Origin: Thermoplasmatota archaeon
GTDB lineage: Archaea; Thermoplasmatota; Thermoplasmata; Halarchaeoplasmatales; Halarchaeoplasmataceae
Direction: 5' to 3'
Assembly (NCBI GenBank): GCA_051745305.1
Contig: JBNJDY010000002.1
Span: forward strand, 2,822-66,821
DNA: 64,000 nucleotides
Shown here: positions 33,530 to 64,000 of the stretch, piece by piece
Position numbering within the stretch: the first letter of the stretch is position 1
Layout: each line of letters starts with the position of its first letter
Notes under the pieces: generated by a model
Told to the model about the DNA's origin: nothing
The model's input: only the letters and a program-made list of their open reading frames with translations
The model's database searches: none
Program-made: the position numbers and the translations under genes

Positions 33530-33696
33530 CTTTCATCGACTCCCGGTATAAATTCATAACCACAATTAGGGCATTTAACCATATTACAACCACCACCCAT
33601 TGGACAGGATTGGCAGGCTGTTACCGAGCCTTTTTCAAATTCATTTCCACAGAGCGGACATTTATGTTTATCCTGAGTATTATTTTGTTTACTCAT
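33526..33696 (-). CDS. Cys-rich small protein (about 56 aa) within the Feo operon; not in the ORF track
   Basis: Manual translation gives MSKQNNTQDKHKCPLCGNEFEKGSVTACQSCPMGGGCNMVKCPNCGYEF... ATGA overlaps occur at both ends (with feoB upstream and the DtxR-FeoA gene downstream). Confidence 0.5.
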   Translation of the reverse strand: MSKQNNTQDKHKCPLCGNEFEKGSVTACQSCPMGGGCNMVKCPNCGYEFIPGVDER

Positions 33697-35654
33697 ATTA
33701 GGCCCCCAAATAATTTTGTAATCTGATTGATAACTCCACCTACGAAAAAGGCAAAAGGAATCACGAAGGCGATGATAGCTAATGCTGTTTTTATACCCCT
33801 TTCTTTGATTATCACCAGAACATTAGCTACACACGGAACGAACAGAGTAATAGAGACAACTGCCACCAGCATCTGAACATGAGTTAAACTACCAGAAAGG
33901 TCCAATATTCCAGCTGCCCCAAAATCTCTTCTTAGGAAGCCTAGAATAAAAGCTATAGATGTTTCTGAAGGCAAGCCCAACCACGAGACAACTACAGGTT
34001 CAAGTCCATTTACTAATATATCCAAAATCCCCGTTAAATTTGCGACACTGATCAAAAAAGTACCTAAAATGAATAGGGGTACCAATTCTTTAAAAAACAT
34101 AGCAACCTTATAATAAGTTTTTCTCAGAACATTGTCCCATTTAGGGATCCTCAGTGGTGGTAATTCCATTATAAAATCACCTCTACCTCCAGGTAAGATT
34201 TTTGAGGCCGCCCAAGCGACGAATAATAACTGGGAGAAGATGATCCCGGCCCACACGAAAAAGTAGTAAAATGGAAGTGTAGCCATGATCGCGAATAATA
34301 CACCTAATTGAGCAGAACATGGAATACCAAGTGCTAACATGGTTGTTGCTATAATTCTTTCTTTTTTCGTGTCTAAAACCCGGGTAGTCAAAGTGGCCAT
34401 GGTGTCACAGCCGAATCCTAGAACCATCGGTAATACAGCTTTTCCATTTAAACCAACCCGTCTAAAACCTTTATCAGCCATGGCCGCTAATCGAGGTATA
34501 TAACCAACATCTTCAAGTATCGAAAATGCCAGGAAAAATGTGGTGATGATAGGCAGTATCAAAGCGATAGCCCAGGTTAAACCTACAGTTATAACTCCAA
34601 ATTCACCTACTAAAATTCTCGATGCAAAGTTCCTTCCCATGGATTCATAAATAAAATCCTTGATATATGGATTGATATACTCCCCAAATATTATCCCTTC
34701 GAAAAAATCTACCAATACCTGTGCTCCTATAAAACCTACGAACTGATATAAAAGAAACACGACCCCGATAAATATAGGGATACCAGTAAGGGGTTTCATC
34801 GTTAGATCATTTATCTTTTCCTTGAACGTGGTTTTCTCGATTTTTTCTTTACTGATGTACTTAGATACTATTTCTTCAGCTTTCCTTCTAATTGCTAATG
34901 TGATAATATAACTTAAATCATGGCTAAATTTTCTATGCAGTCTATTAAGAATTTCTTCTGCCTTTTTCCTCTCTTTCTCGCCTATCTTTTCATCGATAAA
35001 ATCCCTCATCTCACCTGGGGATGATAAAAATAGGAGTGCAGTTCCACGGTTTCCAAAGATGCTTTTTAATTCACTAAGAGCTTCTTCTATTTCCCGAGGA
35101 TAATCTGCTCTCACATCTGGAATTTTTGCTTTAGGTAGACCCTTTTTAAGTGCTGAAGTCCCCCTATGTTCAGGTGCAACGGTTGGAAAGACAGGAACGT
35201 TAAGCTCATCGGAAAGACCTTCATGATCTATATCGATCAAACGGGACTTTGCCTCATCCATCATGTTTAGATTTAAAACAGTAGGGATATCAAATTCAGA
35301 GATCTGCAGGAAAAGCATGATAGCCCTTTTCAGATTTTTAGCGTCGGCGACTTGAATTATTCTATTGGGATCACTGCCTAAGATGATATCTCTTGTAACT
35401 TTTTCATCTTCTGATATGGGAGTCAGAGATTCTGCCCCAGGGGTGTCGATTATAGTTTCTTTTTTCGTACCTATCCTGGTATCCCCAAGACTGACTTCAA
35501 CAGTTGTACCGGGATAATTAGAAACATCTCTGTACTTCCCTGTAAGACTTGAAAATATAACTGATTTACCAACATTAGGGTTACCAACAAGAACAGAAAC
35601 GTTCTCATCAGGGTCTATACCCAAAGCCTTTCTTGCATACTTAATTTTAATCAC
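33693..35654 (-). CDS. feoB: Ferrous iron transporter B (N-terminal GTPase plus a polytopic permease)
   Basis: G1 motif GNPNVGKS, G-domain motifs, then about 10 TM helices. 653 aa. Confidence 0.9.
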   Translation of the reverse strand: MIKIKYARKALGIDPDENVSVLVGNPNVGKSVIFSSLTGKYRDVSNYPGTTVEVSLGDTRIGTKKETIIDTPGAESLTPISEDEKVTRDIILGSDPNRIIQVADAKNLKRAIMLFLQISEFDIPTVLNLNMMDEAKSRLIDIDHEGLSDELNVPVFPTVAPEHRGTSALKKGLPKAKIPDVRADYPREIEEALSELKSIFGNRGTALLFLSSPGEMRDFIDEKIGEKERKKAEEILNRLHRKFSHDLSYIITLAIRRKAEEIVSKYISKEKIEKTTFKEKINDLTMKPLTGIPIFIGVVFLLYQFVGFIGAQVLVDFFEGIIFGEYINPYIKDFIYESMGRNFASRILVGEFGVITVGLTWAIALILPIITTFFLAFSILEDVGYIPRLAAMADKGFRRVGLNGKAVLPMVLGFGCDTMATLTTRVLDTKKERIIATTMLALGIPCSAQLGVLFAIMATLPFYYFFVWAGIIFSQLLFVAWAASKILPGGRGDFIMELPPLRIPKWDNVLRKTYYKVAMFFKELVPLFILGTFLISVANLTGILDILVNGLEPVVVSWLGLPSETSIAFILGFLRRDFGAAGILDLSGSLTHVQMLVAVVSITLFVPCVANVLVIIKERGIKTALAIIAFVIPFAFFVGGVINQITKLFGGLI

Positions 35655-36389: not shown

Positions 36390-38105
36390 TTAAGTCCTTT
36401 TAAACATCTTGTCTAGTTCTTTGGTCGTATAATTGATAATTGTCGGTCTTCCATGAGGGCATGTATATGGTATCTCAGTATTACCTAATTCCTGAATTAT
36501 TTCTTTAGCTCTCGTAAGTGATAAGTTATCACCAGCCATAACGGAAGATCTACAGGCCATATATTTGATCAGTTCTTCTTTCCTTTCTTCTAAACTGCTG
36601 TTTTTTAAATCGGATAATTCGTCTAAAATCGAGTAGATAATCTCTCCCTCTTGTATCTCACCTAACACGACTGGCATTCCTATTACTCTGAAGGTCGATT
36701 TACCAAAAGATTCGATTTTGAAACCTAGTTTTCCTAAAAGGTCTTTATTTGCCTTGATAAGCGCAGATTCACGTGGTTTAACTTCAATTGTCTTGGGAGA
36801 TAATAAGTCTTGACTTCCGATCTTATCGTCATATTTCATTTTCAATCTTTCATAGTTGATCCTCTCATGTGCTGCATGTTGATCTATCATAGATAGACCG
36901 TTGGGTGTTTCTGCTAAGATATATGAGTCTTTGAGTATCCCTAATATTTTCATGTCCGGTAATTTTGATCCCTGGACATCAACTTCTTCCTTTAAGTTAA
37001 GAGTCCTTTGGGAATAACTAAAATCAGATGAATACTCAATCTCCTCAGAATATTTTTCTTTTTCCTCTTTTTCGTTAAAAACATTTTTAGCGTGCTTATC
37101 TGGAGTCGGTACAAGGTCGTGCTCTATAAGCGTAGATTTGACAGCACTACTAATTTCTTCTTTAACTTTTTTTTCATCCTGAAACCTAATTTTGGTTTTC
37201 GTTGGGTGTACATTCACATCGATATCATTTCCAGGGATTGAGATATCGATCACTGTGATTGGATAACGTTTTCTTGGAAGTAGTGTTTTATAGCCTTCCA
37301 TAACACTGTCCTTTAAAAGAGTGTTTTCTACGAATCTACCATTCACATAAGTGTAGATATGTTTTCTACTTGACCTTGTAACTTCAGGTTTACTCAGAAA
37401 ACCATCTATAGAAATATAATCACTTTTAAGGTCTATGTTCACCATCTTTTTGGCGATATCTACACCGTAAATCGATTTTATATTTTGTAATTTAGAATTT
37501 GCCTTTGGCACGAAAAAAATCTCATTCTCATTATGACTTAAGGTAAACTGTACTTCTGGTTTAGATAGTGCGTTCCTCGTAACGATGCTTGTAACATGGG
37601 CCAATTCTGTATTGGTCTTATTTAGATACTTTCTCCTAGCAGGAGTATTGTAAAACAAATCTTTTACTTCTATAGTTGTTCCAACAGGGCAACCAACGGT
37701 GTCTATATTTTTTATTTCATCACCGTGGATTATTATTTCAACTCCTTCTAAATTATCTGCCTTTTTGGTTTTAGCTTTGACTTTTGATACCGCAGCTATA
37801 CTTGGTAGAGCTTCTCCTCTAAAACCTAAACTACTTAGATCGTTGAGGTCATCGATATCATTTATCTTACTAGTTGCATGTTTTTCGAAGGCCAGTTTCA
37901 CCTCTTCTTTTGCCATGCCGGTTCCGTTATCCTTTACAAGAATACGATCTTTTCCACCATTATCAACTTCAATATAGATCTCATCTGCCCCAGCATCTAG
38001 AGAATTCTCTATAAGCTCCTTAACCACTGAAGCTGGTCGTTCGATGACCTCCCCAGCAGCTATTTGATTTACAGTTCGAGATGATAATTTTTTAATTTTA
38101 GACAT
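36390..38105 (-). CDS. mutL: DNA mismatch repair protein MutL (start taken at MSKIKKLSSRTVNQIAAGEV)
   Basis: GHKL ATPase motifs (NQIAAGEVIERPASVVKELIENSLDAG). The C-terminal domain includes an endonuclease-like motif. The start lies 1 nt after the mutS stop. Confidence 0.85.
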   Translation of the reverse strand: MSKIKKLSSRTVNQIAAGEVIERPASVVKELIENSLDAGADEIYIEVDNGGKDRILVKDNGTGMAKEEVKLAFEKHATSKINDIDDLNDLSSLGFRGEALPSIAAVSKVKAKTKKADNLEGVEIIIHGDEIKNIDTVGCPVGTTIEVKDLFYNTPARRKYLNKTNTELAHVTSIVTRNALSKPEVQFTLSHNENEIFFVPKANSKLQNIKSIYGVDIAKKMVNIDLKSDYISIDGFLSKPEVTRSSRKHIYTYVNGRFVENTLLKDSVMEGYKTLLPRKRYPITVIDISIPGNDIDVNVHPTKTKIRFQDEKKVKEEISSAVKSTLIEHDLVPTPDKHAKNVFNEKEEKEKYSEEIEYSSDFSYSQRTLNLKEEVDVQGSKLPDMKILGILKDSYILAETPNGLSMIDQHAAHERINYERLKMKYDDKIGSQDLLSPKTIEVKPRESALIKANKDLLGKLGFKIESFGKSTFRVIGMPVVLGEIQEGEIIYSILDELSDLKNSSLEERKEELIKYMACRSSVMAGDNLSLTRAKEIIQELGNTEIPYTCPHGRPTIINYTTKELDKMFKRT

Positions 38106-38106
38106 C

Positions 38107-40701
38107 TTAATCACTAACCTCTTTTCTAAGCTTCCAAAGTTCATTCATAGCTTCCATAGGTGTCATATTCTCGATATCCATCTTTTTTAACTCTTCGATA
38201 ACAGGATGACTTTCTGAAGATGTTTCTCCGGTATTCGGGTCGAAAACAACCTGTTTGAATTTGGGACTATCTTTAGTTTCCATCTTTATAGTGTGGTCTT
38301 TTTCTATTTGATTCAGCACTTCAATAGAACGTTCAACAACTGGCTTGGGAACACCAGCTAGAGATGCTACATGGATACCATAACTTTCATCTGTATGCCC
38401 TTCTCTGACTTTTCTAAGGAATGTAACCTCTCCTTGACTCTCTTTAACTGCAACGTGTAGATTTTTGACTCCCTTAAGAGACTTTTCAAGTTCGGTTATT
38501 TCATGATAGTGGGTAGCAAAAAGCGTTTTTGCTTTTATATTTTTATCGATATACTCTGTTACCGCCCAGGCAATACTCAGACCATCGAATGTGCTCGTAC
38601 CACTTCCTATTTCATCAAGCAAAATCAAACTATCTGGGGATGCATTGTGCATTATATTAGCAAGTTCCACCATTTCAACCATGAATGTGGATTTTCCTTT
38701 AGTTAAAGCATCTAAAGATCCAACACGGGTAAATATTCTATCAACGATCCCAATGTGAGCTTTCTCAGCAGGTACGAAACTTCCTACGTGAGCTAACAAT
38801 GTGATCAATGCGTTCTGTCTCATATATGTTGATTTACCGGACATATTCGGTCCAGTGATTATGATATATCTGTTGCTTTGCTTATCTAGAAGCGCATCGT
38901 TTGGAATAAAACTATCTACAGTTTTCTCAACGACTGGATGTCTCCCCTCCTTGATGTCTAATCTACCGTCTTCTCCGATATCAGGGCGATTGTAATCATT
39001 TCTAACCGCAAGATGAGCGAACGTAGTAATAACATCCAATTTAGAGAGCACTTCTGCAGTTTTTTGGAATCTTTCTGAATGACTACCTACTTCTTCTCGA
39101 ATCTCTTTGAATATTTCGTATTCAAGGGCTTCCATCTTTTCTTCTGAACTGATTATCTCATCCTCTTTATCTTTTAGTTCTTTAGTATAGTACCTTTCAC
39201 TGTTTTTCAAAGTTTGTTTTCTAGAATAGTTCTCAGGGACCTTATCATCCTGGGATTTTGATACCTCTATGTAGTAACCATGGACTTTATTGTATCCAAC
39301 TTTTAAAGTTTCGATCCCAGTTTTATCTTTTTCCTTTTTTTCCAGAGAACTTATCCATTCTTTTCCTTCTTTTGTTTTTCTTTTAAGCTCATCAAGATCA
39401 TCGTCGAAGCCTTCTTTTATAATGCCGCCTTCCTTAACGGTATTAGGGGGGTCGGTAATTATAGAGTCCTCGATCAGTTTCAGGATATCTTCCATAGGGT
39501 CTAACAATATTTTTAAATTCAGTAAATAATCACTTTTCACATCATCTAAAATTTCTAGAAGAGGTCCTAATTTACCTAGAACGTTCTTTATAGAAATCAG
39601 ATCTCTAGCATTAGCATTTCCATAAACTACTCTGCTGATCAACCTTTCTATATCCGACATACCATCCATCTGGTTTCTAAGATCGTCTCTTAAAAATATT
39701 TCATCTTTTAGTTCTTCTACAGCCCCTAATCTTTCTTCAATCAAATCCACATCAAGTAAAGGCTGCTGCAACCACTTTCTAAGCCTTCTATAACCCATTG
39801 AGGTTACAGTATCATCCATGATTTGCAAAAGAGTCCCTTCTTTACCACTTTCACGTAAATTTTGAAAAATCTCTAAATTTTTTAAGGTGGTGGAATCTAA
39901 AGTCATGTAATCATTATGAGAATAAAACTGTAGTCTTTGTATATAGTCCATAGTTCTTTTCTGCGTATCCTCAAGATAATCTAAGACTGCTCCAGCCGCT
40001 TTTATAGCCTGTTTTTTATCACTAATTCCAAGAGGTTCCAAGGATTCTGTACCGAACTGATTTAATAGTTTTAATTCAGCAGGATGGTATCTAAATGCTT
40101 CGTCTTTGTATTTATTTATCATCATTGAAATTTCCTGTTCCAGCTTTTCTACAAACTTTTCATCGTTGATTAAACTTGATGGTAAAATGCATTCCGAAGG
40201 TTCATATCTCACTATTTCTGTAATAAGATCTTTTTGATCATCTAATTGAGTTACTAAAAAATCGCCTGTAGATATATCTACTGCTGCAAGTCCGTATGCA
40301 CCGTCACCTACAATACCTATTAAAAAATTATTGCTAGAGTCGTCAAGTAATCCCTCATCAATTACTGTTCCTGGCGTTATCACTCTAACAACTTCTCTAT
40401 CCACCAGACCTTTAGCTTGTTTTGGGTCTTCGACCTGTTCAGCAATTGCGACGGTGTATCCATCTTTTATAAGTCTTTGAAGGTAAGAATCTACGGAGTG
40501 ATATGGAACACCAGCCATAGGGATCGGATCATCTTTTCCTTTATCTCTGGTTGTTAAGGCTATGTCTAGTTCTTTAGCTGCTAATTTAGCGTCCTCATCG
40601 AACATCTCGTAAAAGTCCCCCATACGAAAGAAAAGGATTGAATCAGGGTACTGATTTTTCAGTTTATAGTACTGCTTCATCATAGGTGTCCTATCGGACA
40701 T
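38107..40701 (-). CDS. mutS: DNA mismatch repair protein MutS
   Basis: Walker A GPNMSGKSTYMRQ, ABC-type MutS domain order. 864 aa. Confidence 0.9.
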   Translation of the reverse strand: MSDRTPMMKQYYKLKNQYPDSILFFRMGDFYEMFDEDAKLAAKELDIALTTRDKGKDDPIPMAGVPYHSVDSYLQRLIKDGYTVAIAEQVEDPKQAKGLVDREVVRVITPGTVIDEGLLDDSSNNFLIGIVGDGAYGLAAVDISTGDFLVTQLDDQKDLITEIVRYEPSECILPSSLINDEKFVEKLEQEISMMINKYKDEAFRYHPAELKLLNQFGTESLEPLGISDKKQAIKAAGAVLDYLEDTQKRTMDYIQRLQFYSHNDYMTLDSTTLKNLEIFQNLRESGKEGTLLQIMDDTVTSMGYRRLRKWLQQPLLDVDLIEERLGAVEELKDEIFLRDDLRNQMDGMSDIERLISRVVYGNANARDLISIKNVLGKLGPLLEILDDVKSDYLLNLKILLDPMEDILKLIEDSIITDPPNTVKEGGIIKEGFDDDLDELKRKTKEGKEWISSLEKKEKDKTGIETLKVGYNKVHGYYIEVSKSQDDKVPENYSRKQTLKNSERYYTKELKDKEDEIISSEEKMEALEYEIFKEIREEVGSHSERFQKTAEVLSKLDVITTFAHLAVRNDYNRPDIGEDGRLDIKEGRHPVVEKTVDSFIPNDALLDKQSNRYIIITGPNMSGKSTYMRQNALITLLAHVGSFVPAEKAHIGIVDRIFTRVGSLDALTKGKSTFMVEMVELANIMHNASPDSLILLDEIGSGTSTFDGLSIAWAVTEYIDKNIKAKTLFATHYHEITELEKSLKGVKNLHVAVKESQGEVTFLRKVREGHTDESYGIHVASLAGVPKPVVERSIEVLNQIEKDHTIKMETKDSPKFKQVVFDPNTGETSSESHPVIEELKKMDIENMTPMEAMNELWKLRKEVSD

Positions 40702-42248: not shown

Positions 42249-42322
42249 TGGGCTCAGCCGGATTCGAACCGGCGACCTCCGCCATGTCAAGGCGACGTCA
42301 TAACCAACTAGACTATGAGCCC
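42249..42322 (-). tRNA. tRNA-Val (anticodon GAC)
   Basis: GGGCUCA acceptor, D-arm GUCU...UGAC, anticodon stem UCGCC/GGCGG with loop UUGACAU, T-arm GCCGG-UUCGAAU-CCGGC, discriminator A. 74 nt, no encoded CCA. Confidence 0.85.
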
Positions 42323-42464: not shown

Positions 42465-44000
42465 ATGCAGCATCTAAAAAAGATTCTAAAGGACATATAC
42501 TCTGGTGAAATTAACTCACCAGATGAATTACAGAAAGCCAAAATGAAATATTGTAAAGAATTTGGCATCTCTGAACTTCCCAGGAATTCTGAATTATTAG
42601 AATATGTTGAAGAAGTAGATGATATACAAAAGAAGGATGTAATCCCAGTACTACAAAGGAAACCAGCTAGGAAGAAGTCTGGTGTAACTGTAATTGCATG
42701 CATGACTTCTCCAGCGGAATGTCCTCACGGAAAATGTATCATGTGTCCCGGAGGCCCGAATAAAGAAAAACCTTCTCCTCAATCTTACACAGGCAAAGAA
42801 CCGGCTGCTCTTAGGGCTGAGAGAAATGATTTTGATCCAAAAAGGCAGGTGGAGGATAGATTACGTCAATACGAAGCTATAGGTCATAAAACCGATAAAG
42901 TGGACCTTATCGTCATGGGAGGAACCTTCCCATCTAGGGAATGGGAGTATCAAAAGAGTTTTGTTAAAGGATGTTTAGATGGATTAAACGGTTCGGTATC
43001 TAGATCTTTAGATGAAGCAAAAAAAATCAATGAAACTGCTGATATCAGGTGTATTGGTCTAACCATAGAAACTAGACCTGACTATAGTAAAGAATTGCAA
43101 ATAGATCGGATGTTAAATTTAGGTGCAACTAGAGTAGAACTAGGTGTACAAAGTTTGAGAGATGATTTATTAGATAATATTCATAGGGGACATACAGTGA
43201 AAGATACTATCGAATCAACTAAGTTAGCCAAGGAAAGAGGATTTAAAGTATGTTACCATATGATGCCTGGACTTCCTGGAAGTAATAGTCATGATGATCT
43301 AGAAGAGTTTAAAAGATTATTTGACGATGAAAATTTTAAACCAGACATGTTAAAGCTTTATCCAACTTTAGTTGTAGAAGGAACTGAATTATACGAGATG
43401 TGGAAAGATGGTGATTATAATCCAATGACCACTGAAGAAGCTTCTATATTGGTAGCTAAAATGAAATCATTAGTCCCTCCCTATGTAAGAATCCAAAGAG
43501 TGCAGAGGGATATTCCTTCTCCGTTGGTCGATGCAGGGGTGAAAAAAAGTAATCTTCGTCAATATGCTAGAAAGGAGTTGAAAAATATGGGTCTCGATTG
43601 TGACTGTATCAGGTGTAGGGAGGCAGGCCATTCTAATAAAGAAATTGATATTTCAGATATCGATATGAAAGAAATGGATTACAGAGCATCTGATGGTACA
43701 GAATACTTTTTGGAAATCGGTGTTGATTCCGTAATTGTAGGATATGCAAGATTGAGAGTTTGTGATTACAACCCACCAATTATACGGGAGTTAAAAGTAG
43801 TAGGCTCGATGACACCTGTGCAGAAAGAAGGAGACAAATACCAACACAAAGGGATCGGGAAAAAACTAGTCGAAGAATGTGAAAATATTGCTTCATCAGA
43901 AGCAGACCACTTACGTGTAATAAGCGGAGTCGGTGCTAGAGAGTACTATAGGAATTTAGGGTATGAGCTTGAAGGACATTACATGGTTAAAAGATTCTAA
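42465..44000 (+). CDS. elp3: Elp3-type tRNA uridine-34 modification enzyme (radical SAM plus GNAT acetyltransferase)
   Basis: Radical-SAM cluster CPHGKCIMCPGG and a C-terminal GNAT region (HKGIGKKLVEECE). 511 aa. Confidence 0.9.
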   Translation: MQHLKKILKDIYSGEINSPDELQKAKMKYCKEFGISELPRNSELLEYVEEVDDIQKKDVIPVLQRKPARKKSGVTVIACMTSPAECPHGKCIMCPGGPNKEKPSPQSYTGKEPAALRAERNDFDPKRQVEDRLRQYEAIGHKTDKVDLIVMGGTFPSREWEYQKSFVKGCLDGLNGSVSRSLDEAKKINETADIRCIGLTIETRPDYSKELQIDRMLNLGATRVELGVQSLRDDLLDNIHRGHTVKDTIESTKLAKERGFKVCYHMMPGLPGSNSHDDLEEFKRLFDDENFKPDMLKLYPTLVVEGTELYEMWKDGDYNPMTTEEASILVAKMKSLVPPYVRIQRVQRDIPSPLVDAGVKKSNLRQYARKELKNMGLDCDCIRCREAGHSNKEIDISDIDMKEMDYRASDGTEYFLEIGVDSVIVGYARLRVCDYNPPIIRELKVVGSMTPVQKEGDKYQHKGIGKKLVEECENIASSEADHLRVISGVGAREYYRNLGYELEGHYMVKRF

Positions 44001-55363: not shown

Positions 55364-56998
55364 GTGATGGATAAAGATAAGTTTGAGTCACTCACGTGGT
55401 TATTAGGACTTTTGAAGGCTCTTATCAAAAAGCCCGGTGAGATATTTCGGGGTATGCGTCGCGAAGGGATCTATGCTTTTTTAAAAGAAAGGATGAAGAA
55501 ACCGAGCAAGGATGAGATACTTGAAGGTAATGTTATCGGGGTCATGTTCAAGTTAGGATGGCCTATGATGGTAGCCACTTTTTTGAGAACACTTTACAAT
55601 CTTATTGACACTTTTTGGCTCGGCAGGATTGCTGATCCTCAGATAGCAGAATATTCTGTAACCGCAGTAGGTCAGGGATGGACTGTTGTTTTTATGATGA
55701 TGTCCATCGAGATGGGATTTGGGATCGCCGCATTAGCATTAATTTCTCAGTACACTGGGCAGAGAAATTACGAAGAAGCTGATAGAACTGCTGGACAGTT
55801 ATACTTTATAGCTATCACGGCTTCAATCCTGATCGGTGTATTTGGTTATTTTATGACCCCTACGTTTATGGACATTCTTGTAGGTGCTGGAGAGGATTCC
55901 GCAGCATTAGCTCACTACGGCACAATGTACATCCAGATAATATTTCTAGGGCTGCCGTTTATGTTCCTCTTTTTTGCATTCATGTATACACTTCGGGGTT
56001 GGGGTGATACGATCACACCGATGAAGATCACTGCCATCTCTGTTTCACTCAATATGATCATCAATCCTATACTCATCTTTGGATCTGGAACTATGCCTTT
56101 TCTTGGCATAACAATTCCAGAGCTACCATTATTTGGGCCAGTACCTGCCCTTGGAGTAAGAGGGGCGGCTATTGGAACAATTATGAGTCGAGGGATCGGT
56201 TCAATATATGCGACCTACATGCTTTTCAAAGGAAAATTAGGGTTGAAACTAAAACTTTCTTATTTGAAACCGGACCTATCTAGATTGAAAGAGTTTCTAA
56301 AAATTGGTGTACCAGCTGGCGTTGGTAGGTTTGGAACTTCTATAGGTTTCATTATTTTGTGGGCTGTGATATACAGGCTTCCGAATCCTGAGATTGCTGG
56401 GGCCGCTTATAGTGTTGGCAACAGGATATTGAACATAACCTTTCTTATTATGGGCGGTTTCGCCATGGCTATAAGCACCATGGTGGGACAGAGCTTGGGG
56501 GCTGATGACAAAAAACGATCGGAAGAAGTGGCCAAAAAAGGTTTTTTAGCTGTAGCTGGATTGATGTTGTTCTTTACAGCAATTTTATTCCTTTTGAGAA
56601 ACAATTTAATAATGATATTCATTCCTGATTCTCCAGAAGTCATCGCAGAAGGGGCTAAGTTTTTAGGTATCTTCGCCCTTGCCATGCCATTCTTTGGGGT
56701 ATTTAGAGGCGTGACTTCTCTTCTAGGAGGGTCCGGCCATACGAAACTACAGATGGGTCTGAACCTTACTAGACTGTGGGGGTTGAGACTACCGTTCGTC
56801 TTTCTATTCGCTATCTTTTTATCCATGAATTCCACCGGTGTTTGGACAGGGATGGCGTTGAGTAATGTGGTAGCATTTGTCATTGCTTTAGGTGTTTATA
56901 AAACGGGATGGTGGAAAGAAAAAGTGATCAAAGATAAACCCACTCCTGGTTCTAAAACTAGATTAGACCGAGATAAACCTGATAGAAGAAGGGATTGA
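55364..56998 (+). CDS. MATE-family efflux transporter
   Basis: 12-TM MATE layout with duplicated halves and a charged C-terminal tail. Confidence 0.8.
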   Translation: MMDKDKFESLTWLLGLLKALIKKPGEIFRGMRREGIYAFLKERMKKPSKDEILEGNVIGVMFKLGWPMMVATFLRTLYNLIDTFWLGRIADPQIAEYSVTAVGQGWTVVFMMMSIEMGFGIAALALISQYTGQRNYEEADRTAGQLYFIAITASILIGVFGYFMTPTFMDILVGAGEDSAALAHYGTMYIQIIFLGLPFMFLFFAFMYTLRGWGDTITPMKITAISVSLNMIINPILIFGSGTMPFLGITIPELPLFGPVPALGVRGAAIGTIMSRGIGSIYATYMLFKGKLGLKLKLSYLKPDLSRLKEFLKIGVPAGVGRFGTSIGFIILWAVIYRLPNPEIAGAAYSVGNRILNITFLIMGGFAMAISTMVGQSLGADDKKRSEEVAKKGFLAVAGLMLFFTAILFLLRNNLIMIFIPDSPEVIAEGAKFLGIFALAMPFFGVFRGVTSLLGGSGHTKLQMGLNLTRLWGLRLPFVFLFAIFLSMNSTGVWTGMALSNVVAFVIALGVYKTGWWKEKVIKDKPTPGSKTRLDRDKPDRRRD

Positions 56999-58248
56999 AA
57001 GACAAAACTAAAATATACCCTATTCTAAAGTTTCATTTAATGAAGTATTATCTAGAAGCCTATGGCTGCACCATGAATCAAGGGGAGACCCAAATGTTAG
57101 CAGAGAATTTGAACAGTCAAGGCCATGTACAGGTAAACAGTCCGAGAGATGCTGATTTGGCGGTTATTGGAACTTGTGTCGTAATCTCAAAAACTGAGGA
57201 AAGGATGAAAAGAAGGATTAAAGAGTTAAGTGAAAAATGTTCTAAAGTTATGGTAACTGGCTGTTTAACCTCGATAAATAATGGTGAGCTTGATTTAATA
57301 TCTGATAATATTGAGAAAGTAGTTCCTAAAGATATCGCCCTCTCAGTCAGTCCTAAACCGGGTTTAGTGGGAGTTATACCTATAGCGACCGGTTGTTTAG
57401 GTGAATGCTCATATTGTATCACAAAAATTGCAAGAGGTCCTCTAAACAGTCGGGAGCCGGATGATATAAAATGTAGGTTTGAACAATTAGTAAAATCATC
57501 CGCATGGGAGATTCAAATCACTTGTCAAGATACGGCTTCATATGGTAAAGATATCAACAGTTCCCTACCTGAATTGATCTACAAACTTCTAGAAATAGAA
57601 AAAGAGTCTAGGATAAGGATAGGGATGATGAACCCTGACACAGCTATACCCATCAAAGAAGAGATCAAGAATATATTGAACCATGAAAGGATTTACAAAT
57701 TTCTTCACATTCCTCTACAGTCTGGTTCAGAACAAGTTCTTAAAGATATGAATAGACGGTATACACCTGAGGATTGGATAAAATTAGTAAAGGAAATCAG
57801 GAAAAAGTTCCCTGATTTGACCCTCTCAACAGATATAATAACTGGTTTTCCAGGAGAAGAAGAAGATGATTTTAATAAAACCCTAGAAATATTAAAGGAT
57901 ACAGAGCCTGATATTATCAATGTGACTCGTTTTAGTCCTAGGCCTGGTACAGAAGCCATTAACAAAAGCAACAAAGTCCATTCTAGAATAAAGAAAAAAC
58001 GTTCAAAAGAACTTACTGAACTGAGATTTAAAATCAGTCGTGACAGGAATGAGAGATATAAGGGTAGACGTATGCTAGTAACTATTTTAGAAGAAGGAAA
58101 GGGAGATTCTTTAAAGGGGAGAACAGATAATTATAAAGTAGTGGTTTTAAACAAAAATGATAGTTCTCTTATCGGAAAAAGGGTTGTAGTCGATATCGTG
58201 GATGCTAAAGAAGTCTATTTGGAAGCTGAATTAATCAAAATTATCTAG
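56995..58248 (+). CDS. Radical-SAM methylthiotransferase, MtaB/CDKAL1-like (MTTase domain, radical SAM, TRAM). The likely start is at MKYYLEAYGC (57040).
   Basis: N-terminal MTTase Cys (AYGCTMNQ), radical-SAM CLGECSYC, C-terminal TRAM domain. Confidence 0.8.
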   Translation: MKDKTKIYPILKFHLMKYYLEAYGCTMNQGETQMLAENLNSQGHVQVNSPRDADLAVIGTCVVISKTEERMKRRIKELSEKCSKVMVTGCLTSINNGELDLISDNIEKVVPKDIALSVSPKPGLVGVIPIATGCLGECSYCITKIARGPLNSREPDDIKCRFEQLVKSSAWEIQITCQDTASYGKDINSSLPELIYKLLEIEKESRIRIGMMNPDTAIPIKEEIKNILNHERIYKFLHIPLQSGSEQVLKDMNRRYTPEDWIKLVKEIRKKFPDLTLSTDIITGFPGEEEDDFNKTLEILKDTEPDIINVTRFSPRPGTEAINKSNKVHSRIKKKRSKELTELRFKISRDRNERYKGRRMLVTILEEGKGDSLKGRTDNYKVVVLNKNDSSLIGKRVVVDIVDAKEVYLEAELIKII

Positions 58249-59136
58249 GTAAGAATTTTCTAAACATTTTATTAGGTTCACCATGGTTCTATTGTAAGGA
58301 GTATCTACTCCATGTTTGCTCCCAACACTTACAATCGCTCCGTTAATACAATCAATTTCGGTCTTTCTTTTATTTTCAACATCCTGAAGCATACTAGATT
58401 TGTTCTCACTAGTATTCTTTGCTACCTTTACAGCTTCTTTGAACGGATCTTTTCCAGGCAAAACAACTTCAGTTTCTGCCACTTTTACGGATTCTTCACA
58501 TATGTATTCCATCAATGAAAAGAGGTTTTTGTCATCAATAATCGCACCGTTTTTCAAGCCACTTAAAGCTGTGATGGGGTTTATACCGGCATTGATGATG
58601 ACCTTTTTCCAAATGTGCCCATATATGTTATCTGATATTTTGTTTTCAATACCCGCATCATTCAAAATTTGAGAGAATTTCTTAACACCTATTATAAAAT
58701 TATCTCCAAATAGCCCTATTATCGTTTCTCCTTTACCGGCATAGATCACTTCCCCATACTTTTTAAAGGTAATTCCATTTTCTGTAATCCCTCCGATCAC
58801 TCGATCCTCACCTACAAATTTTGAAATTATTTTTTCATTCTTTAAGCCATTTTGGAGGGAGACAACCATTGTTTTTTCACTCAAATATTTGTGTATATCT
58901 TTCATCACCTGTTCAGTTTGGAAAGATTTAGTACAGATTATAACATACTCCAAGTCGGAAAGTGCATTTGGGTCAGTTGTATACTTGATATCTGTTTTGA
59001 GTTGAGTTTTACCAGAAATATCTACTTCCTTCAGAGACAAGTCTTTTCGACCATATAATACAACTTGATTCATTTTTCCTATCATCCCTGCAAGGAATGT
59101 GCCTAAGGCTCCCGGTCCAACAATACCTACCTTCAT
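58231..59136 (-). CDS. panE: 2-dehydropantoate 2-reductase (ketopantoate reductase). Start taken at MKVGIVGPGALG.
   Basis: N-terminal Rossmann motif GIVGPGALG and the ApbA/PanE fold. Confidence 0.75.
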   Translation of the reverse strand: MKVGIVGPGALGTFLAGMIGKMNQVVLYGRKDLSLKEVDISGKTQLKTDIKYTTDPNALSDLEYVIICTKSFQTEQVMKDIHKYLSEKTMVVSLQNGLKNEKIISKFVGEDRVIGGITENGITFKKYGEVIYAGKGETIIGLFGDNFIIGVKKFSQILNDAGIENKISDNIYGHIWKKVIINAGINPITALSGLKNGAIIDDKNLFSLMEYICEESVKVAETEVVLPGKDPFKEAVKVAKNTSENKSSMLQDVENKRKTEIDCINGAIVSVGSKHGVDTPYNRTMVNLIKCLENSYLDNFD

Positions 59137-59183: not shown

Positions 59184-62100
59184 TCAAGTAAGGATATCAT
59201 CCATTTCGCTTTTCATAAGATCTAATTGATAATCATCGAGTTCTTGAGAATCTATTTGCACCAATAGTATAGATTCTGACATTACAGATTGGTCTTTTAA
59301 AGATAGTAAAAGATGGAGTACCTTTCTGAAATCGTTATTTATTATAAGATATTCGATGCCGCTTAAGAGAATTACACTATTTCCAGATTTAAGGAATTTT
59401 TCTAATTCCAACTTTAATTTTTTAAGATTTTTGGGTCTTATAACCTCCTCCTTATCCACGTTTGAAAGCCATATTATAGAACTCTTCTCAAGATCGTATT
59501 TGTTTCGAATCTTTTTCGGGTATTCCCTAGTGATGCATATACCATCCATACCAGTACTCATTATTTTTTTAAATAGTTCAAAACTATTATCGAGGTTCTC
59601 ATCGATCATCATATATGTAGAACTTTTATTGATTCCCTCGGGTAATTCTTCTGCCAATTCTTTTTCTTCCTTCTCAGACTTTTTTCTACCGGACCCTTTT
59701 TCTTTCTTTTCCAAACTTTCTTTCGGTTCTTTTGTTTTAAGATCATCTTTTTTTATTTCAGGGGCATGTTTTTTCTTCGAGTAATCTATCAATCTCTCCG
59801 CTGTGTCTTCTTTCATGTATCTGATTTCCATCAATTTTTCAACTGATGTTTCAGCTATATCTTCAAAAGAATAGTAACCCTTTTTTGTGATACTTTCAGC
59901 GATTGATTTACCGATACCTGAAATCTTTTGTAACTCTCCGATGAATCTTTTCATTTCCTTGTTTAAACCTGATTTCAATTGCTCTTTTTTTATTTCGCCC
60001 TTTTTGAGTTTGTCACCTTTTTCTTTCATGGTCTGTACTATTCTTCTAGCTAAACTTCTTTTGAAACCTCTTATATCTGAAATATCTTCGGCAGTCGCTT
60101 TTTTAAGTTTATCCAAAGATGTGTATCCGTTGTAATATAAACGCTCAGAGAGTTCTTTGCTCATACCTGGGATTGATTGATAAATATGTAGCATATTTGT
60201 TTTATATAATGGATTTATTCCAATATCTACTGTTTCTCCATTTATGTCCCACTCTACTACATACTCAACTTCATCCATATCGTCATCTGATATGGTTAAA
60301 TCTTTACCACCAACATAGTTTAATATATCCGTTTTATGTGAATTTATAGATTCAAAAAATTCATCTGGTGGGTAGATGAATATCTCAACTTCATCCTCTT
60401 CTAAAAGGTCAAAATCTTCCCGCATACTCTTGATTCTTAACTTGATCTCATTTGCGATTTGCTCATTCCATATATCCTCCGACATCTCATAATTGGCATA
60501 TACATTGAAATCATCGTATTCTACTTCTACATATCCTTCTGGTAGCTCATTTTTAAAGGTCAACATCTCAGGTTGAATCTCAGTTTGATGCCCTTCAATA
60601 CCAATGATGTATTCACCTTCTTCAATTTTTTCTTTAATCTCTTCAGCATCCCTATTTTCTAGCAAAAGGGCAATCCTACTAGCCCATTGACGATATGTTT
60701 TTCCGATAGCATCCATGTTCGCTTCTACTGTCAATTCTAGTTCTTTCCATTCCTCATCAGGTCTTAAAATTTCAATTTCTTTGATTTTAGCTTTATTTTT
60801 TATTATATGTTTGAACTTTTCAAAATTGTCATATGTTTCAAAAGTAGACGTATCGATAACAATTTTCTGGAAGGGCCATTTAAGGGGTAATTCCATTTCC
60901 TTTTTTAAGTTATATACATCATTGGTCACTTCATCTGCTACATTTTTCCAAAAATCAAATCTAGAGTTTTTAAATTTATTGATTGTGATATCTTCATCGG
61001 AAGTAAAAACAGAATCGTTTTTTGGATGCATATCAGTGTAAATTTTTTCTGTTATACATGGAGCTAAAGGACACAAAATTCTTGTAACGGAATTTAATAA
61101 ATATTCAAGTGTCAATATTACGGATATTCTATCAATTTCATCTCCTTCTTGGACCCTATACCGTACTATGCCAACATACCATTGAGCTATATCTTTTAAC
61201 ACAAAATCATTCATGAGTGAAATCAGTTCGTCGAATCTAAGATCATCCAAGTGCTCTTCTGAATATTTAATTATGTCCTGTGATCTTGATAATATCCATT
61301 TATCTTCTATTCTAGTATTTTCGTAAAAAGATTCGATAGATTCATCTTCTAGTTCTTTTATATCACTTAAACCGTCTTTTAATTGGTTATAGAAATTGTA
61401 GATATTCCATAGGACTTTGATAATTTTGTTAGGTCTAGATAGATTTTCATCTTTGAGTTCTTTGTCCTCCCAAATAGGAGAATTTTCAAGAAAAGCGAGT
61501 CTAAGTGAGTCAGATCCAACAGTTTTTAAATATTTTGGTATGTTTATTTCGCCTTCTATTTTCCCTCGTGTAGCTATTTTTTTAATTGATATGTCGTTAA
61601 ACAAAATGCTAGATAATACAAGATTGCCAAAGATTACCCCATCTTCATCCATAAATTTACCGAAAGTTAGATCACCAGACCACCAATCTTTGAAATTTTT
61701 TTCATTATCAGGATAACCTAATTGAGCCCAGGGGGATATAGATTTGATAAAGTTGTGATGAATACTCTTACCTTCCCATTTCATTTTTTCTCCACAATCG
61801 TCACACTCAATATCCAAGTTGTCAATAAAATGGGGGAAGATTATATGTTTCATGTTTGCTCCAGTTAAGTCTTTTAATTGATCAGTTGACGATATTATTT
61901 TTTCCTCCCCACAGCCACATCCCCATATAGGAAGTTGGATTCCTATCTGTTTATCACTGGAAATTCTCCAATTATCAATATCTTCCAAAGAATCGTAGTC
62001 TTCTAAAGGGGACCCCCATTCAGGTAACCATTCTATATCATCTGAGTGCTCATGTACTTTGTTTTCCATTTCCTCTGTGATCAAAATCCATTCCTTAATA

Positions 62101-63341
62101 GTTACATTATTTACTTCAGATGAGCAATTCGGACATGAGATTATTTTCTTTTCCTCTGAATATTTATCTAATAAATATTTTAAATCTTTAAGATATTCTT
62201 CTAACATTTCATCTAGATCTTTTATCAGATTGTTTTTAGCTCCTTTATACTTGATATTTTTTCCAACTACTTCTTCTTTGTTGACTCTATACTCTATATC
62301 GATACCCACATCATCCGAGAATTTAACACTGTCTTCTGTTATACCCGGTGTAACTAGTTTAATTTCATCTTCTTGATTTAATATATCTGAAGCTAGTATC
62401 TTATTGGTTATTTGTTTCTTGATTCGCTTTCTGTGTTTAATCAGTTTCTCGATAGGATTGATGAATTCCATACCATGTATTTTATTACCTGAAATATAAT
62501 TTATCTCTTTGAAATCTGTTATGCCTGCTTCAGCCATTATAGAATTCAACTTTGATTTCGGAACTATACCTCTTTCCTCAACACCATCTAATTCGTAAGA
62601 TACTACACTGTATTTTCCTTTTGGAGAGACAAATATACCTAGAGGTGCAAGAAGAGAGAGAAGTTTTGGAATCTTCAAAAATAAAAATCTGTCTTTCCCT
62701 CTTTTAACCGGAACTTTCAGTAAATATTCCGCTTCAGTATAAGTCTCTTCAACGATATTCTCTTTTGAATTATATTCATTACAATTTTTGCACTGCCAAA
62801 CATCTCTTTCCACCTTTTTAAATAATCCTTCATTGTATAATTCACTCAATGACCACCAAACTGAGTTTATAAATTTTTTATTTGAAGTATGATATTCACT
62901 ACTATCCCAAATTTTTGCCCCGTTTAAAGATTTTTTAAAATTTGATTTAAATCTTCCTGAACTTTTTTTCCATATTTTCAAAAGTTTTTCGTTATCTTTT
63001 TTCTTAATCTCATCTATGTTTTCAACATCTAATTCTTGTAAAAAAGTCTTTTGTGAATCTTTGGTAAAAGTGTTAAGACAATATTTCATGTTTATATTTT
63101 GTTTATTTAAACATTGATATTTGTACCAAACATCATATAATAGATGTTTGTACCATATTGATGGTTTAAGTTCGGATTCTATATTATCGGGAGTTTGAAC
63201 TAAATAATACTTATCTTTATTTTTACTTGTTTCTTTGATTTTGTCAATAATATTTTCTTTTTCCCAGTACATTTTTATTTTTGTTTCCAAGTTCAATGGA
63301 TCATATTCTTTCAAGATTTTTTTCTCCATTATATCTAACAC
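59184..63341 (-). CDS. Giant (1385 aa) protein: a degenerate class-Ia aminoacyl-tRNA-synthetase-like scaffold (IleRS/ValRS/LeuRS-like; HIGH and KMSKS are not recognisable), followed by HhH repeats, a K/E-rich linker and a C-terminal domain of unknown function
   Basis: aaRS landmarks are present: VERDVWQCKNCNEYNS...YTEAEYLLKV (CP1 entry), DNWRISSDKQIGIQLPIW (the WCISRQRxWG-like motif), GSDSLRLAFLENSP (GADALRLYL-like) and an anticodon-binding-helix-like WILSRSQDI...DIAQWYVGIVRYRV. The HIGH position reads PDNIESELKPS and the KMSKS position reads GEINIPK. C-terminal HhH motifs IRGFKRSLARRI and ISGIGKSIAESI. Confidence 0.8.
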   Translation of the reverse strand: MLDIMEKKILKEYDPLNLETKIKMYWEKENIIDKIKETSKNKDKYYLVQTPDNIESELKPSIWYKHLLYDVWYKYQCLNKQNINMKYCLNTFTKDSQKTFLQELDVENIDEIKKKDNEKLLKIWKKSSGRFKSNFKKSLNGAKIWDSSEYHTSNKKFINSVWWSLSELYNEGLFKKVERDVWQCKNCNEYNSKENIVEETYTEAEYLLKVPVKRGKDRFLFLKIPKLLSLLAPLGIFVSPKGKYSVVSYELDGVEERGIVPKSKLNSIMAEAGITDFKEINYISGNKIHGMEFINPIEKLIKHRKRIKKQITNKILASDILNQEDEIKLVTPGITEDSVKFSDDVGIDIEYRVNKEEVVGKNIKYKGAKNNLIKDLDEMLEEYLKDLKYLLDKYSEEKKIISCPNCSSEVNNVTIKEWILITEEMENKVHEHSDDIEWLPEWGSPLEDYDSLEDIDNWRISSDKQIGIQLPIWGCGCGEEKIISSTDQLKDLTGANMKHIIFPHFIDNLDIECDDCGEKMKWEGKSIHHNFIKSISPWAQLGYPDNEKNFKDWWSGDLTFGKFMDEDGVIFGNLVLSSILFNDISIKKIATRGKIEGEINIPKYLKTVGSDSLRLAFLENSPIWEDKELKDENLSRPNKIIKVLWNIYNFYNQLKDGLSDIKELEDESIESFYENTRIEDKWILSRSQDIIKYSEEHLDDLRFDELISLMNDFVLKDIAQWYVGIVRYRVQEGDEIDRISVILTLEYLLNSVTRILCPLAPCITEKIYTDMHPKNDSVFTSDEDITINKFKNSRFDFWKNVADEVTNDVYNLKKEMELPLKWPFQKIVIDTSTFETYDNFEKFKHIIKNKAKIKEIEILRPDEEWKELELTVEANMDAIGKTYRQWASRIALLLENRDAEEIKEKIEEGEYIIGIEGHQTEIQPEMLTFKNELPEGYVEVEYDDFNVYANYEMSEDIWNEQIANEIKLRIKSMREDFDLLEEDEVEIFIYPPDEFFESINSHKTDILNYVGGKDLTISDDDMDEVEYVVEWDINGETVDIGINPLYKTNMLHIYQSIPGMSKELSERLYYNGYTSLDKLKKATAEDISDIRGFKRSLARRIVQTMKEKGDKLKKGEIKKEQLKSGLNKEMKRFIGELQKISGIGKSIAESITKKGYYSFEDIAETSVEKLMEIRYMKEDTAERLIDYSKKKHAPEIKKDDLKTKEPKESLEKKEKGSGRKKSEKEEKELAEELPEGINKSSTYMMIDENLDNSFELFKKIMSTGMDGICITREYPKKIRNKYDLEKSSIIWLSNVDKEEVIRPKNLKKLKLELEKFLKSGNSVILLSGIEYLIINNDFRKVLHLLLSLKDQSVMSESILLVQIDSQELDDYQLDLMKSEMDDILT

Positions 63342-63518
63342 TCACATAATCTGCTATCTTAAATTAGTTTCCATAATTTTTGAATTTATCGAATGAAGTA
63401 CTTGAACCATCCTATATCAATTTAAACACCCGAAATTATATATATAATAGTACTTCTCAATACATAAACCTTTATTTAGAAGGTTTAAGGCTCTTAAAGT
63501 TTAAGAGGAGGAAATAAC

Positions 63519-64000
63519 ATTAGCCTTGAATTCCAAAGGAAAGCCTATGTCTTAGGGAAAGAACACTCAATATCTATTCTCAAGTATCTTTATGCAGTGG
63601 GATGGATAAAAGCAAGTGATGTTGCTAATTCATTAGATCTCCATATAGCTACCTGTACTAAATATTTAGACGAATTACATGAGATAGATTTACTCGAAAT
63701 GAGGGAAGGAAAAGGTAAAACCGGAAAAATAAAAGAGTATAGATTAAAAGACCCTAGAATAGAACTCCATTTCGAGATTGAAAACACTGATCTTAATGAT
63801 GAAGATATTGAATTCTATAAAAAATTATATGAATCGTTAACAAAAAGAACGGAAGGAGTTTATGGTTCTATCTCGGTTGATATTCTTGATTTAGACGAAA
63901 TTGAAAACATAAGTAGCATAAAAGTTTTGATAGACTCGATCAGAAAGTTGCTTGAATTCAATGAAAAAACTATAGGTCTTAATCCCACTAGAAAATTAGT
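63519..64000 (+). CDS. Partial (3'-truncated by the window) winged-HTH transcriptional regulator (ArsR/MarR-like); start codon uncertain
   Basis: The open frame runs from 63498 to the window end and encodes ...SISILKYLYAVGWIKASDVANSLDLHIATCTKYLDELHEIDLLEM... (wHTH). A strong SD GAGGAGG at 63505-63511 is followed 7 nt later by ATT. There is no nearby in-frame ATG. Confidence 0.4.
   Translation, partial: MSLEFQRKAYVLGKEHSISILKYLYAVGWIKASDVANSLDLHIATCTKYLDELHEIDLLEMREGKGKTGKIKEYRLKDPRIELHFEIENTDLNDEDIEFYKKLYESLTKRTEGVYGSISVDILDLDEIENISSIKVLIDSIRKLLEFNEKTIGLNPTRKL

Follow-up and report, generated by a model that had tools for sequence, protein, structure and literature searches.

A degenerate isoleucyl-tRNA synthetase joined to helix-hairpin-helix modules and an inactivated KaiC-like domain in a Thermoplasmatota archaeon

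The window analysed here is a stretch of 64,000 nucleotides from contig JBNJDY010000002.1 of a Thermoplasmatota archaeon (assembly GCA_051745305.1). Close to its right end, on the reverse strand, lies an uninterrupted open reading frame (ORF; 59184..63341) of 1385 amino acids (aa), counted from a GTG at 63341 to the TGA stop at 59184-59186. Its product is a homologue of isoleucyl-tRNA synthetase (IleRS) from which the active sites for aminoacylation and editing have almost certainly been erased, followed by helix-hairpin-helix (HhH) modules and a C-terminal domain of the DUF835 family. We discuss this pseudo-IleRS as a possible non-catalytic input of a KaiC-type signalling module.

The IleRS homologue and its C-terminal module

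The ATG at 63329 (MEKK...) is probably the true start and would give a protein of 1381 aa, because orthologues keep an ATG at this place and the length matches that of the 1381-aa NCBI protein P0001, deposited as 'MAG: DUF835 domain-containing protein [Thermoplasmatota archaeon]'. The closest solved structure in a sequence search is IleRS2 (8c8u; residues 18-999, E 6.5e-38), and both this alignment and the Pfam matches display the collinear architecture of an IleRS, with a core bearing connective peptide (CP) insertions, an anticodon-binding domain and a C-terminal domain. All domains are encoded on the reverse strand. Residues 1-640 (61422..63341; Pfam tRNA-synt_1 at 24-560) form the degenerate catalytic body, a Rossmann fold with CP insertions according to Pfam and the alignments, and include a homologue of the CP1/editing domain (62142..62756). 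The anticodon-binding helical domain (Anticodon_1, residues 680-826; 60864..61304) retains the landmarks DKWILSR and WYVxxxRxR. The IleRS C-terminal domain (DUF5915, residues 845-1043; 60213..60809) carries the signature AIGKTYRQWASRIALLLENRDAEE at 60639-60710 and ranks among the most conserved regions of the family. Two HhH modules at about residues 1053-1108 and 1136-1186 (HHH_5 twice; 59784..60185) are supported by profile matches and by a structural model and are net basic (+9). A K/E-rich linker (59622..59756), predicted to be disordered, leads to DUF835 (residues 1251-1380; 59202..59591).

The NCBIfam model for ileS (TIGR00392) is matched over positions 5-853 of 861, but with 173.8 bits against a cutoff of 621.4. 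Motif states were read from alignments with true IleRS. The HIGH position is occupied by TPDNIESELKPS (63159-63194), whose residues vary even among the closest relatives. GWDTHGLP is replaced by CLNTFTKD (63057-63080), WFDSG by HHNFIKS (61722-61760) and DQTRGWF by DEDGVIF (61623-61652), and a deletion of 12 residues in the KMSKS loop has left GKIEGEINIPK (61533-61565). The two editing motifs are lost as well, TTTPWT being replaced by KIPKLLSLLAPL (62640-62675) and GTGxVHxAP by EIKLVTPGI (within EIKLVTPGITEDS, 62328-62366). Retained are four structural Cys pairs of the Zn type, C184/C187 (62781-62792), C403/C406 (62112-62138), C475/C477 (61908-61922) and C513/C516 (61791-61805), and the landmarks NWRISS..., GSDSLRL and DKWILSR. 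These motif states show a protein that would be unable either to aminoacylate or to edit.

The C-terminal domain matches DUF835 (PF05763) with 111.9 bits against a gathering threshold of 33.1 (E 2.7e-32). DUF835 has been classed as an inactivated KaiC-like ('iKaiC') signalling domain; REC-DUF835 and REC-PAS-PAS-DUF835 architectures are known from Methanomicrobia and Thermoplasmata, and REC-PAS-DUF835 proteins are likewise counted as iKaiC (PMC5847659). An AlphaFold model of residues 1046-1385, built from an alignment of 89 sequences, reached a predicted local distance difference test score (pLDDT) of 89 (43 in a single-sequence run), and the K/E linker (residues 1196-1225, pLDDT below 50) is its sole disordered part. 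The predicted DUF835 structure displays a KaiC/FlaH/RecA fold, and its top fold matches are of the KaiC type (PH0284, FlaH). The Walker A P-loop GxxxxGK[ST] is absent from the domain, in which the junction of strand 1 and helix 1 reads YMMIDENLDNSFELF. Among 60 DUF835 proteins that lack an IleRS part, 13 carry HisKA_7TM, while HhH, zinc ribbons, TPR, GAF or PAS domains are found in some of the rest; we interpret this as an indication that DUF835 is a C-terminal, transmitter-like module placed behind sensor domains.

A preliminary description, made from the letters of the window, had recognised a class Ia synthetase homologue lacking both catalytic signatures. This is confirmed and can be specified as an IleRS, and the loss extends to the editing site. 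The description of the sequence was accurate, because each catalytic landmark is replaced while the Cys pairs and the anticodon-domain landmarks persist, and the alignments with true IleRS gave no sign of intact HIGH and KMSKS motifs that had merely been misaligned. The tandem HhH repeats, the disordered K/E-rich linker and the alpha/beta fold of the C-terminal domain are likewise supported by Pfam and by the AlphaFold model. The C-terminal domain is not unknown, as had been supposed: the Pfam search that recovered both HHH_5 copies also identified it as DUF835, the iKaiC domain of the literature.

The fusion family and its selective constraint

The fusion had been thought to lack precedent, which does not hold. 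Querying with the IleRS part of P0165, a motif-intact relative from Ca. Sysuiplasma acidicola, we examined the best 120 matches, of which 115 contain PF05763, mostly together with HHH_5 (PF14520) and some with zinc ribbons. Their assigned name is isoleucine--tRNA ligase, with entries from Methanomassiliicoccus luminyensis, Methanomassiliicoccales, Thermoplasmata and Ca. Sysuiplasma acidicola. HxGT is retained in 118 of the 120 and xM[SH]KS in all, and the motif-intact fusions retain the other catalytic and editing motifs too. Judged by domain content, IleRS-(HhH)-DUF835 is the usual form of IleRS in Methanomassiliicoccales and in many Thermoplasmata. With the DUF835 profile, exhaustive searching in HMMER retrieved 2922 proteins, and the best 150 of these include about 17 full-length cluster representatives with an IleRS body in front of DUF835 (1228-2329 aa). 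A first, word-indexed search had given just three other relatives, an artefact of its prefilter that is superseded by the HMMER search and the searches with the IleRS part.

The family falls into three grades. Motif-intact fusions score 953 and 933 bits on ileS. KMSKS-less proteins (P0118, P0111, P0090, P0092 and P0113) score 743 and 695 bits and are likely to be annotated automatically as functional IleRS, because these values exceed the NCBI cutoff. The fully degenerate group, with 307, 290 and 174 bits, comprises the window protein, P0002-4, L008, L009, P0076, P0078, P0079, P0080, P0084 and P0099. In the KMSKS-less group (for example at locus L017, 10001-16990) HIGH is partly lost too and the editing motifs are kept; some of its proteins reach 1650-2330 aa and have long insertions that separate the IleRS body from DUF835.

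The window protein shares the signature AIGK[VT]YRQW with the motif-intact fusions, and in a neighbour-joining tree, which is crude and may suffer from long-branch effects, the degenerate sequences fall into a single clade adjacent to the active fusions. Taken together, the sequence comparisons show that the degenerate clade almost certainly descends from an IleRS already bearing HhH and iKaiC. Among the GTDB representatives carrying the subclade of the window are 'Candidatus Saliniplasma sp.' and a Thermoplasmata metagenome-assembled genome, isolate B1Sed10_34. In the literature searched, no publication was found that describes even the active IleRS-HhH-DUF835 fusion, a search beyond whose reach the KaiC-hub paper (Makarova et al. 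2017) lay. The fusion itself is thus already present in public databases under routine names, and its dead but selected form is a pseudoenzyme joined to a protein of the iKaiC sensor type.

Two further synthetases were met in these searches. P0005, the best-scoring true IleRS, was rejected as an enzyme of the same genome, as it lies on a bacterial contig. P0006 (L021, 8001-11132) is an IleRS of the 'PTANG' IleRS2 type with intact HIGH and KMSKS on a low-GC (31%) archaeal contig, where it neighbours Kae1-Bud32, Topo VI, Csl4 and RpoL, and shows that a non-archaeal type of IleRS is present in some archaea. An enzyme of this type could have replaced the dead fusion, with no link to the lineage of the window established.

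Intact ORFs of 1370-1451 aa occur in at least 12 lineages at 25-73% identity, and the same intact architecture is found in independent ENA, NCBI, JGI and Logan assemblies. A chimeric assembly or a frameshift, which the preliminary description had considered, is excluded by this agreement. The whole protein is kept by purifying selection in the degenerate clade, the overall ratio of nonsynonymous to synonymous substitution rates (dN/dS) being 0.15 between the window and L006 and 0.23 between L005 and L009. By domain, the same two pairs give 0.17-0.30 for the dead core, 0.09-0.12 for the anticodon domain, 0.12-0.14 for DUF5915, 0.06-0.16 for DUF835 and 0.38-0.48 for the K/E linker. The HhH region has 0.11 in the first pair and 0.99 in the second, where dS is just 0.035. 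Across members of the subclade, sequence identity is 63-76% in DUF5915, HhH and DUF835 and 36-54% in the core. Three regions, namely the anticodon-binding domain, DUF5915 and DUF835, are thus the most tightly constrained; HhH equals them in identity and in one of the two dN/dS comparisons. C-terminal domains more conserved than the core are the reverse of what is expected of an enzyme, and we interpret this pattern as an indication that the protein has a role other than catalysis, seated mainly in its C-terminal half.

Conserved neighbours and intergenic blocks

A gene for a winged-helix protein (winged helix-turn-helix, wHTH) of about 200 aa lies on the forward strand at 63519..64000, where it is truncated by the window end, so that only the wHTH part of the divergent unit can be seen in the window. 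The divergent arrangement noted in the preliminary description recurs in all orthologous loci of the subclade, in which the wHTH gene is followed directly by the gene for a KaiC-like ATPase of 229-231 aa (PF06745, 185 bits). Each of the subclade's five complete loci (L001, L005, L006, L008 and L009) has both genes, and in L008 the linkage persists though the downstream synteny is interrupted by 5.5 kb.

Beyond the KaiC ATPase gene, as far as the contigs reach, L001-L003 carry the gene of a 1949-aa membrane protein and then that of an HhH/zinc-ribbon/TPR protein, and in L006 a 635-aa protein with a KaiC-like N-domain takes the position of the giant protein. In L001 (2681-8530, reverse strand) the giant protein has an N-terminal KaiC-like domain (PF06745, 31 bits) with a degenerate P-loop and a G/N-rich repeat region, and the remainder appears to be a transmembrane segment plus an acidic, very large part made up of Ig-like repeats. 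Orthologues occur in L002, L003 and L013. It resembles a membrane sensor that belongs to the same KaiC module.

The start of the wHTH gene is probably ATT. No ATG, GTG or TTG is found at the conserved N-terminus in any of the six orthologous loci (window 63505-63521), and a conserved GGAGG is followed 7 nt on by ATT (window, L006 and L001) or ATA (L008, L005 and L009). The absence of the usual starts and the conserved GGAGG before ATT or ATA suggest a conserved non-canonical AUU/AUA start, which gene callers have placed 20-50 codons late.

The divergent intergenic region (63342..63518) contains two blocks that are invariant in an alignment of six orthologous loci, despite flanking proteins that are only 52-73% identical. 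Block 1, ATTAGTTTCCATAATTTTTGAA, is 22 nt long and lies at 63363-63384, upstream of the pseudo-IleRS ATG. Block 2, a 30-nt invariant block (63483-63513) upstream of the wHTH gene, reads GTTTAAG-N5-TTAAAGTTTA and then GGAGG. The first block holds an imperfect inverted repeat, TTCCA-N6-TTGAA, and a palindrome, TTTAAG-N4-CTTAAA, directly precedes the wHTH gene's Shine-Dalgarno sequence. The blocks are candidate operator or promoter elements, or hairpin elements of a 5' untranslated region.

The most widespread neighbour is a gene of the 2-dehydropantoate 2-reductase (ApbA/PanE) family, located in tandem downstream in the window (58231..59136, reverse strand; TIGR00745, 249 bits) and adjoining the pseudo-IleRS gene in eight of ten degenerate loci. 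We do not assert an operon, because a separate TATA-like A/T stretch and a T5 run lie in the 47-nt spacer. Beside P0099 (L015 9912-10160; L016 12678-12926) there is a gene for a stand-alone 82-aa AsnC-type ligand-binding (RAM) domain, together with genes for an acyl-CoA dehydrogenase and a class III aminotransferase; with ApbA/PanE, these hint at a theme of branched-chain amino acids or keto acids. The genes for motif-intact P0165 and for KMSKS-less P0092 have housekeeping surroundings that include S24e, DUF359 and Rpb7.

Convergent with the ApbA gene, at 56995-58248 on the forward strand, is a gene for a MiaB-like-B methylthiotransferase (ms2t6A37 type, 418 bits), whose position is conserved in several loci. 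The tRNAs carrying t6A37 include tRNA-Ile, and the proximity to pseudo-IleRS may be mere synteny. Elsewhere the window holds a MutS of the bacterial type (1091 bits) paired with MutL (36390-40701, reverse strand), the genes for GluRS (31089-32750), RqcH (25269-27188), Elp3 (42465-44000), aCPSF1 (905-2827) and FeoB (33693-35654), a single tRNA-Val(GAC) at 42249-42322, and an ORF of 552 aa (5514-7172, forward strand) without Pfam or NCBIfam match at E <= 1e-5.

Possible roles and known counterparts

The reading that we prefer, with a probability of roughly 0.4, is that a dead descendant of IleRS serves a KaiC-type signalling module as an input or adaptor without catalysis of its own. The charging of tRNA would have been lost, and the IleRS-derived body would be the ligand-binding part, with tRNA-Ile, by descent, as its most likely ligand; alternatively, the acidic C-terminal IleRS domain might bind a protein partner. 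The iKaiC domain would dock the protein onto a KaiC-like ATPase, in keeping with the position of DUF835 behind 7TM, PAS, GAF or REC sensor domains in other archaeal proteins. In the subclade of the window, the partners would be the divergently encoded KaiC-like ATPase and the winged-helix protein, by which a signal related to translation could be coupled to transcription. A separate functional IleRS would have to be encoded elsewhere in the genome. Sensing of tRNA is a plausible hypothesis, and the conserved patch GKxYRQWxx[KR] is retained along with the landmarks of the anticodon domain. The narrower proposal of signalling from tRNA to KaiC is more doubtful than this reading as a whole, of which the identity of the protein is the nearly certain part.

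Several observations weigh against an input role in KaiC signalling, or against tRNA as the signal. DUF5915 of the window protein has a net charge of -33 over 208 residues, or about -16 per 100, where most active fusions have about -1 to -5 and other proteins of the window -5 to +2; such strong acidity would suit contact with another protein, or with the basic HhH modules of the same chain, better than the binding of RNA. The loop motif for the tRNA 3' end is partly degraded. Compared in hhalign with the KaiC ATPases encoded nearby, from shallow profiles, DUF835 gave no significant match (E 0.2-0.27; the aligned segment is the region of the Walker-B strand), so that the evidence for a relationship to KaiC comes from the predicted fold and the literature. 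The KaiC/wHTH unit is absent beside the distant degenerate members P0080, P0076 and P0099, and in P0078 the giant protein and HhH/TPR genes lie 3 kb off in another orientation. Because the adjacency is confined to the subclade of the window, it could be inherited gene order. Within the 64-kb window, which was the extent of the search, no IleRS was found besides the pseudo-IleRS.

The strongest competing explanation is a partner of the translation apparatus without any signalling, which sequesters or chaperones tRNA-Ile, serves as scaffold of a multi-synthetase complex or regulates IleRS in the manner of a 'prozyme', and in which HhH and DUF835 are merely inherited from the ancestral enzyme and serve the same housekeeping purpose. 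We regard it as possible, at lower odds than a KaiC input. It agrees with the finding that motif-intact IleRS from Methanomassiliicoccales and Ca. Sysuiplasma also carry HhH-DUF835 and are encoded among housekeeping genes with no KaiC nearby, with a KaiC adjacency that is not general in the degenerate clade and with the strong constraint on the anticodon-binding domain. It is at odds with the company that DUF835 keeps elsewhere, behind 7TM, PAS, GAF and REC sensor domains, with the strict conservation of the divergent wHTH-KaiC unit and the intergenic blocks in the subclade of the window, and with the acidity of the C-terminal IleRS domain. Alternatively, HhH and the ATPase-dead RecA fold might constitute a RadA-like module for genome maintenance that works on DNA or together with paralogues of the RadA/KaiC type, the IleRS body being reduced to a bulky scaffold. 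Foldseek aligns about 270-290 columns of residues 1046-1385 with RadA, Rad51 and Dmc1, spanning the HhH N-domain and the core, and the HhH region matches the RadA N-terminal model with 38.8 bits. The missing P-loop, the lack of demonstrated DNA-binding L1/L2 loops and of adjoining repair genes, and the conservation of the anticodon and C-terminal IleRS domains, which equals that of DUF835 and would not be needed in a mere scaffold, make this proposal unlikely.

The remaining explanations are much less probable. The preliminary description had also suggested a defence-type protein, that is, an anti-phage system targeting or sensing tRNA, for which there is the general precedent of tRNA-directed defence and a marginal similarity of the wHTH neighbour to HTH regions of the Csa3/CasR type (E about 1e-3). 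PADLOC models matched neither the pseudo-IleRS nor the giant neighbour and gave only marginal values for the wHTH and KaiC neighbours (E 6.5e-4 to 1e-2); this lack of significant matches, the stable housekeeping context with conserved synteny in place of a variable island, and the vertical descent from the lineage's own IleRS leave defence a very improbable role. A genuine IleRS with unusual or misaligned motifs is slightly less probable still: the homology to IleRS is collinear over the full length and relatives are annotated as such, but all catalytic and editing motifs are replaced by residues that are not conserved within the clade, the KMSKS loop is deleted, and the ileS score of 174 bits falls short of the 621 required, while motif-intact relatives exceed 930. 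The loss of all catalytic motifs might finally suggest a decaying pseudogene or an assembly chimera, an explanation to which the uninterrupted ORFs in at least 12 lineages and in independent assemblies, the dN/dS of 0.15-0.23 and the domain-specific pattern of conservation leave practically no room.

An order-level group of archaea thus appears to carry an IleRS fused to an ATPase-dead signalling domain of the KaiC/RecA fold, which goes unmentioned in the literature searched. The family provides a natural series from motif-intact over KMSKS-less to completely dead forms, and the dead forms are still under purifying selection. That selection is strongest on non-catalytic, C-terminal parts is direct evidence for a second, non-catalytic function of the synthetase scaffold. 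KaiC-like ATPases have been proposed as signalling hubs of archaea, with few inputs identified, and a synthetase-derived protein beside a KaiC ATPase and a wHTH regulator is a concrete candidate input. Should the fusion be only a structural leftover of its ancestor, it would be an interesting pseudoenzyme and a warning for annotation.

The closest known counterparts are the motif-intact fusions themselves (P0263 of M. luminyensis and P0165), which share the collinear order of tRNA-synt_1, Anticodon_1, DUF5915, an occasional zinc ribbon, HhH, linker and DUF835, the latter being 34-45% identical to that of the window protein. They differ in keeping HxGT, xM[SH]KS, TTTPWT, GTGxVH, WFD and DQTRGWF, all of which the window protein has lost. 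With the iKaiC sensor proteins it has in common the PF05763 domain, the C-terminal 'transmitter' position behind a large input region and, in its subclade, a KaiC ATPase and a wHTH protein encoded next door; its input, however, is a dead aminoacyl-tRNA synthetase and not REC, PAS, GAF or 7TM. RadA/Rad51 recombinases and the ATPase-poor RecA-fold assemblies, namely Rad51 paralogues and Elp4/5/6, are more remote, since DUF835 of the window protein is without the Walker A/B catalytic set and its best folds are of the KaiC type.

Synthetase homologues kept for roles other than aminoacylation are known from HisZ, a non-catalytic paralogue that is the regulatory subunit of ATP-phosphoribosyltransferase, and from LeuRS-I of Sulfolobus islandicus, an inactive class Ia duplicate in an archaeon. 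Neither has an HhH or KaiC-like extension, and HisZ is a class II core only, whereas the window protein keeps the full multidomain body of an IleRS. If tRNA is sensed, the best functional analogy is GCN2, the eukaryotic sensor of uncharged tRNA, in which a HisRS-like domain without aminoacylation is likewise fused to a signalling domain. GCN2 combines a class II HisRS-like domain with a protein kinase, and the window protein a class Ia IleRS-like body with an ATPase-dead KaiC/RecA fold; moreover, the C-terminal IleRS domain of the latter is highly acidic and its binding of tRNA is putative. By this analogy, the dead IleRS body might read the charging or abundance of tRNA-Ile and signal through iKaiC to the KaiC-like ATPase and the winged-helix regulator, and across the family IleRS-HhH-iKaiC would wire aminoacylation to KaiC-type hubs in Thermoplasmata. 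We consider such a counterpart of GCN2 an unlikely, yet specific, version of the preferred reading. To our knowledge, the sensing of amino-acid supply or tRNA charging in archaea is unresolved, and we know of no RelA/(p)ppGpp-type or GCN2-type systems among them; if true, the GCN2-like reading would provide the first candidate for an archaeal sensor of amino-acid starvation.

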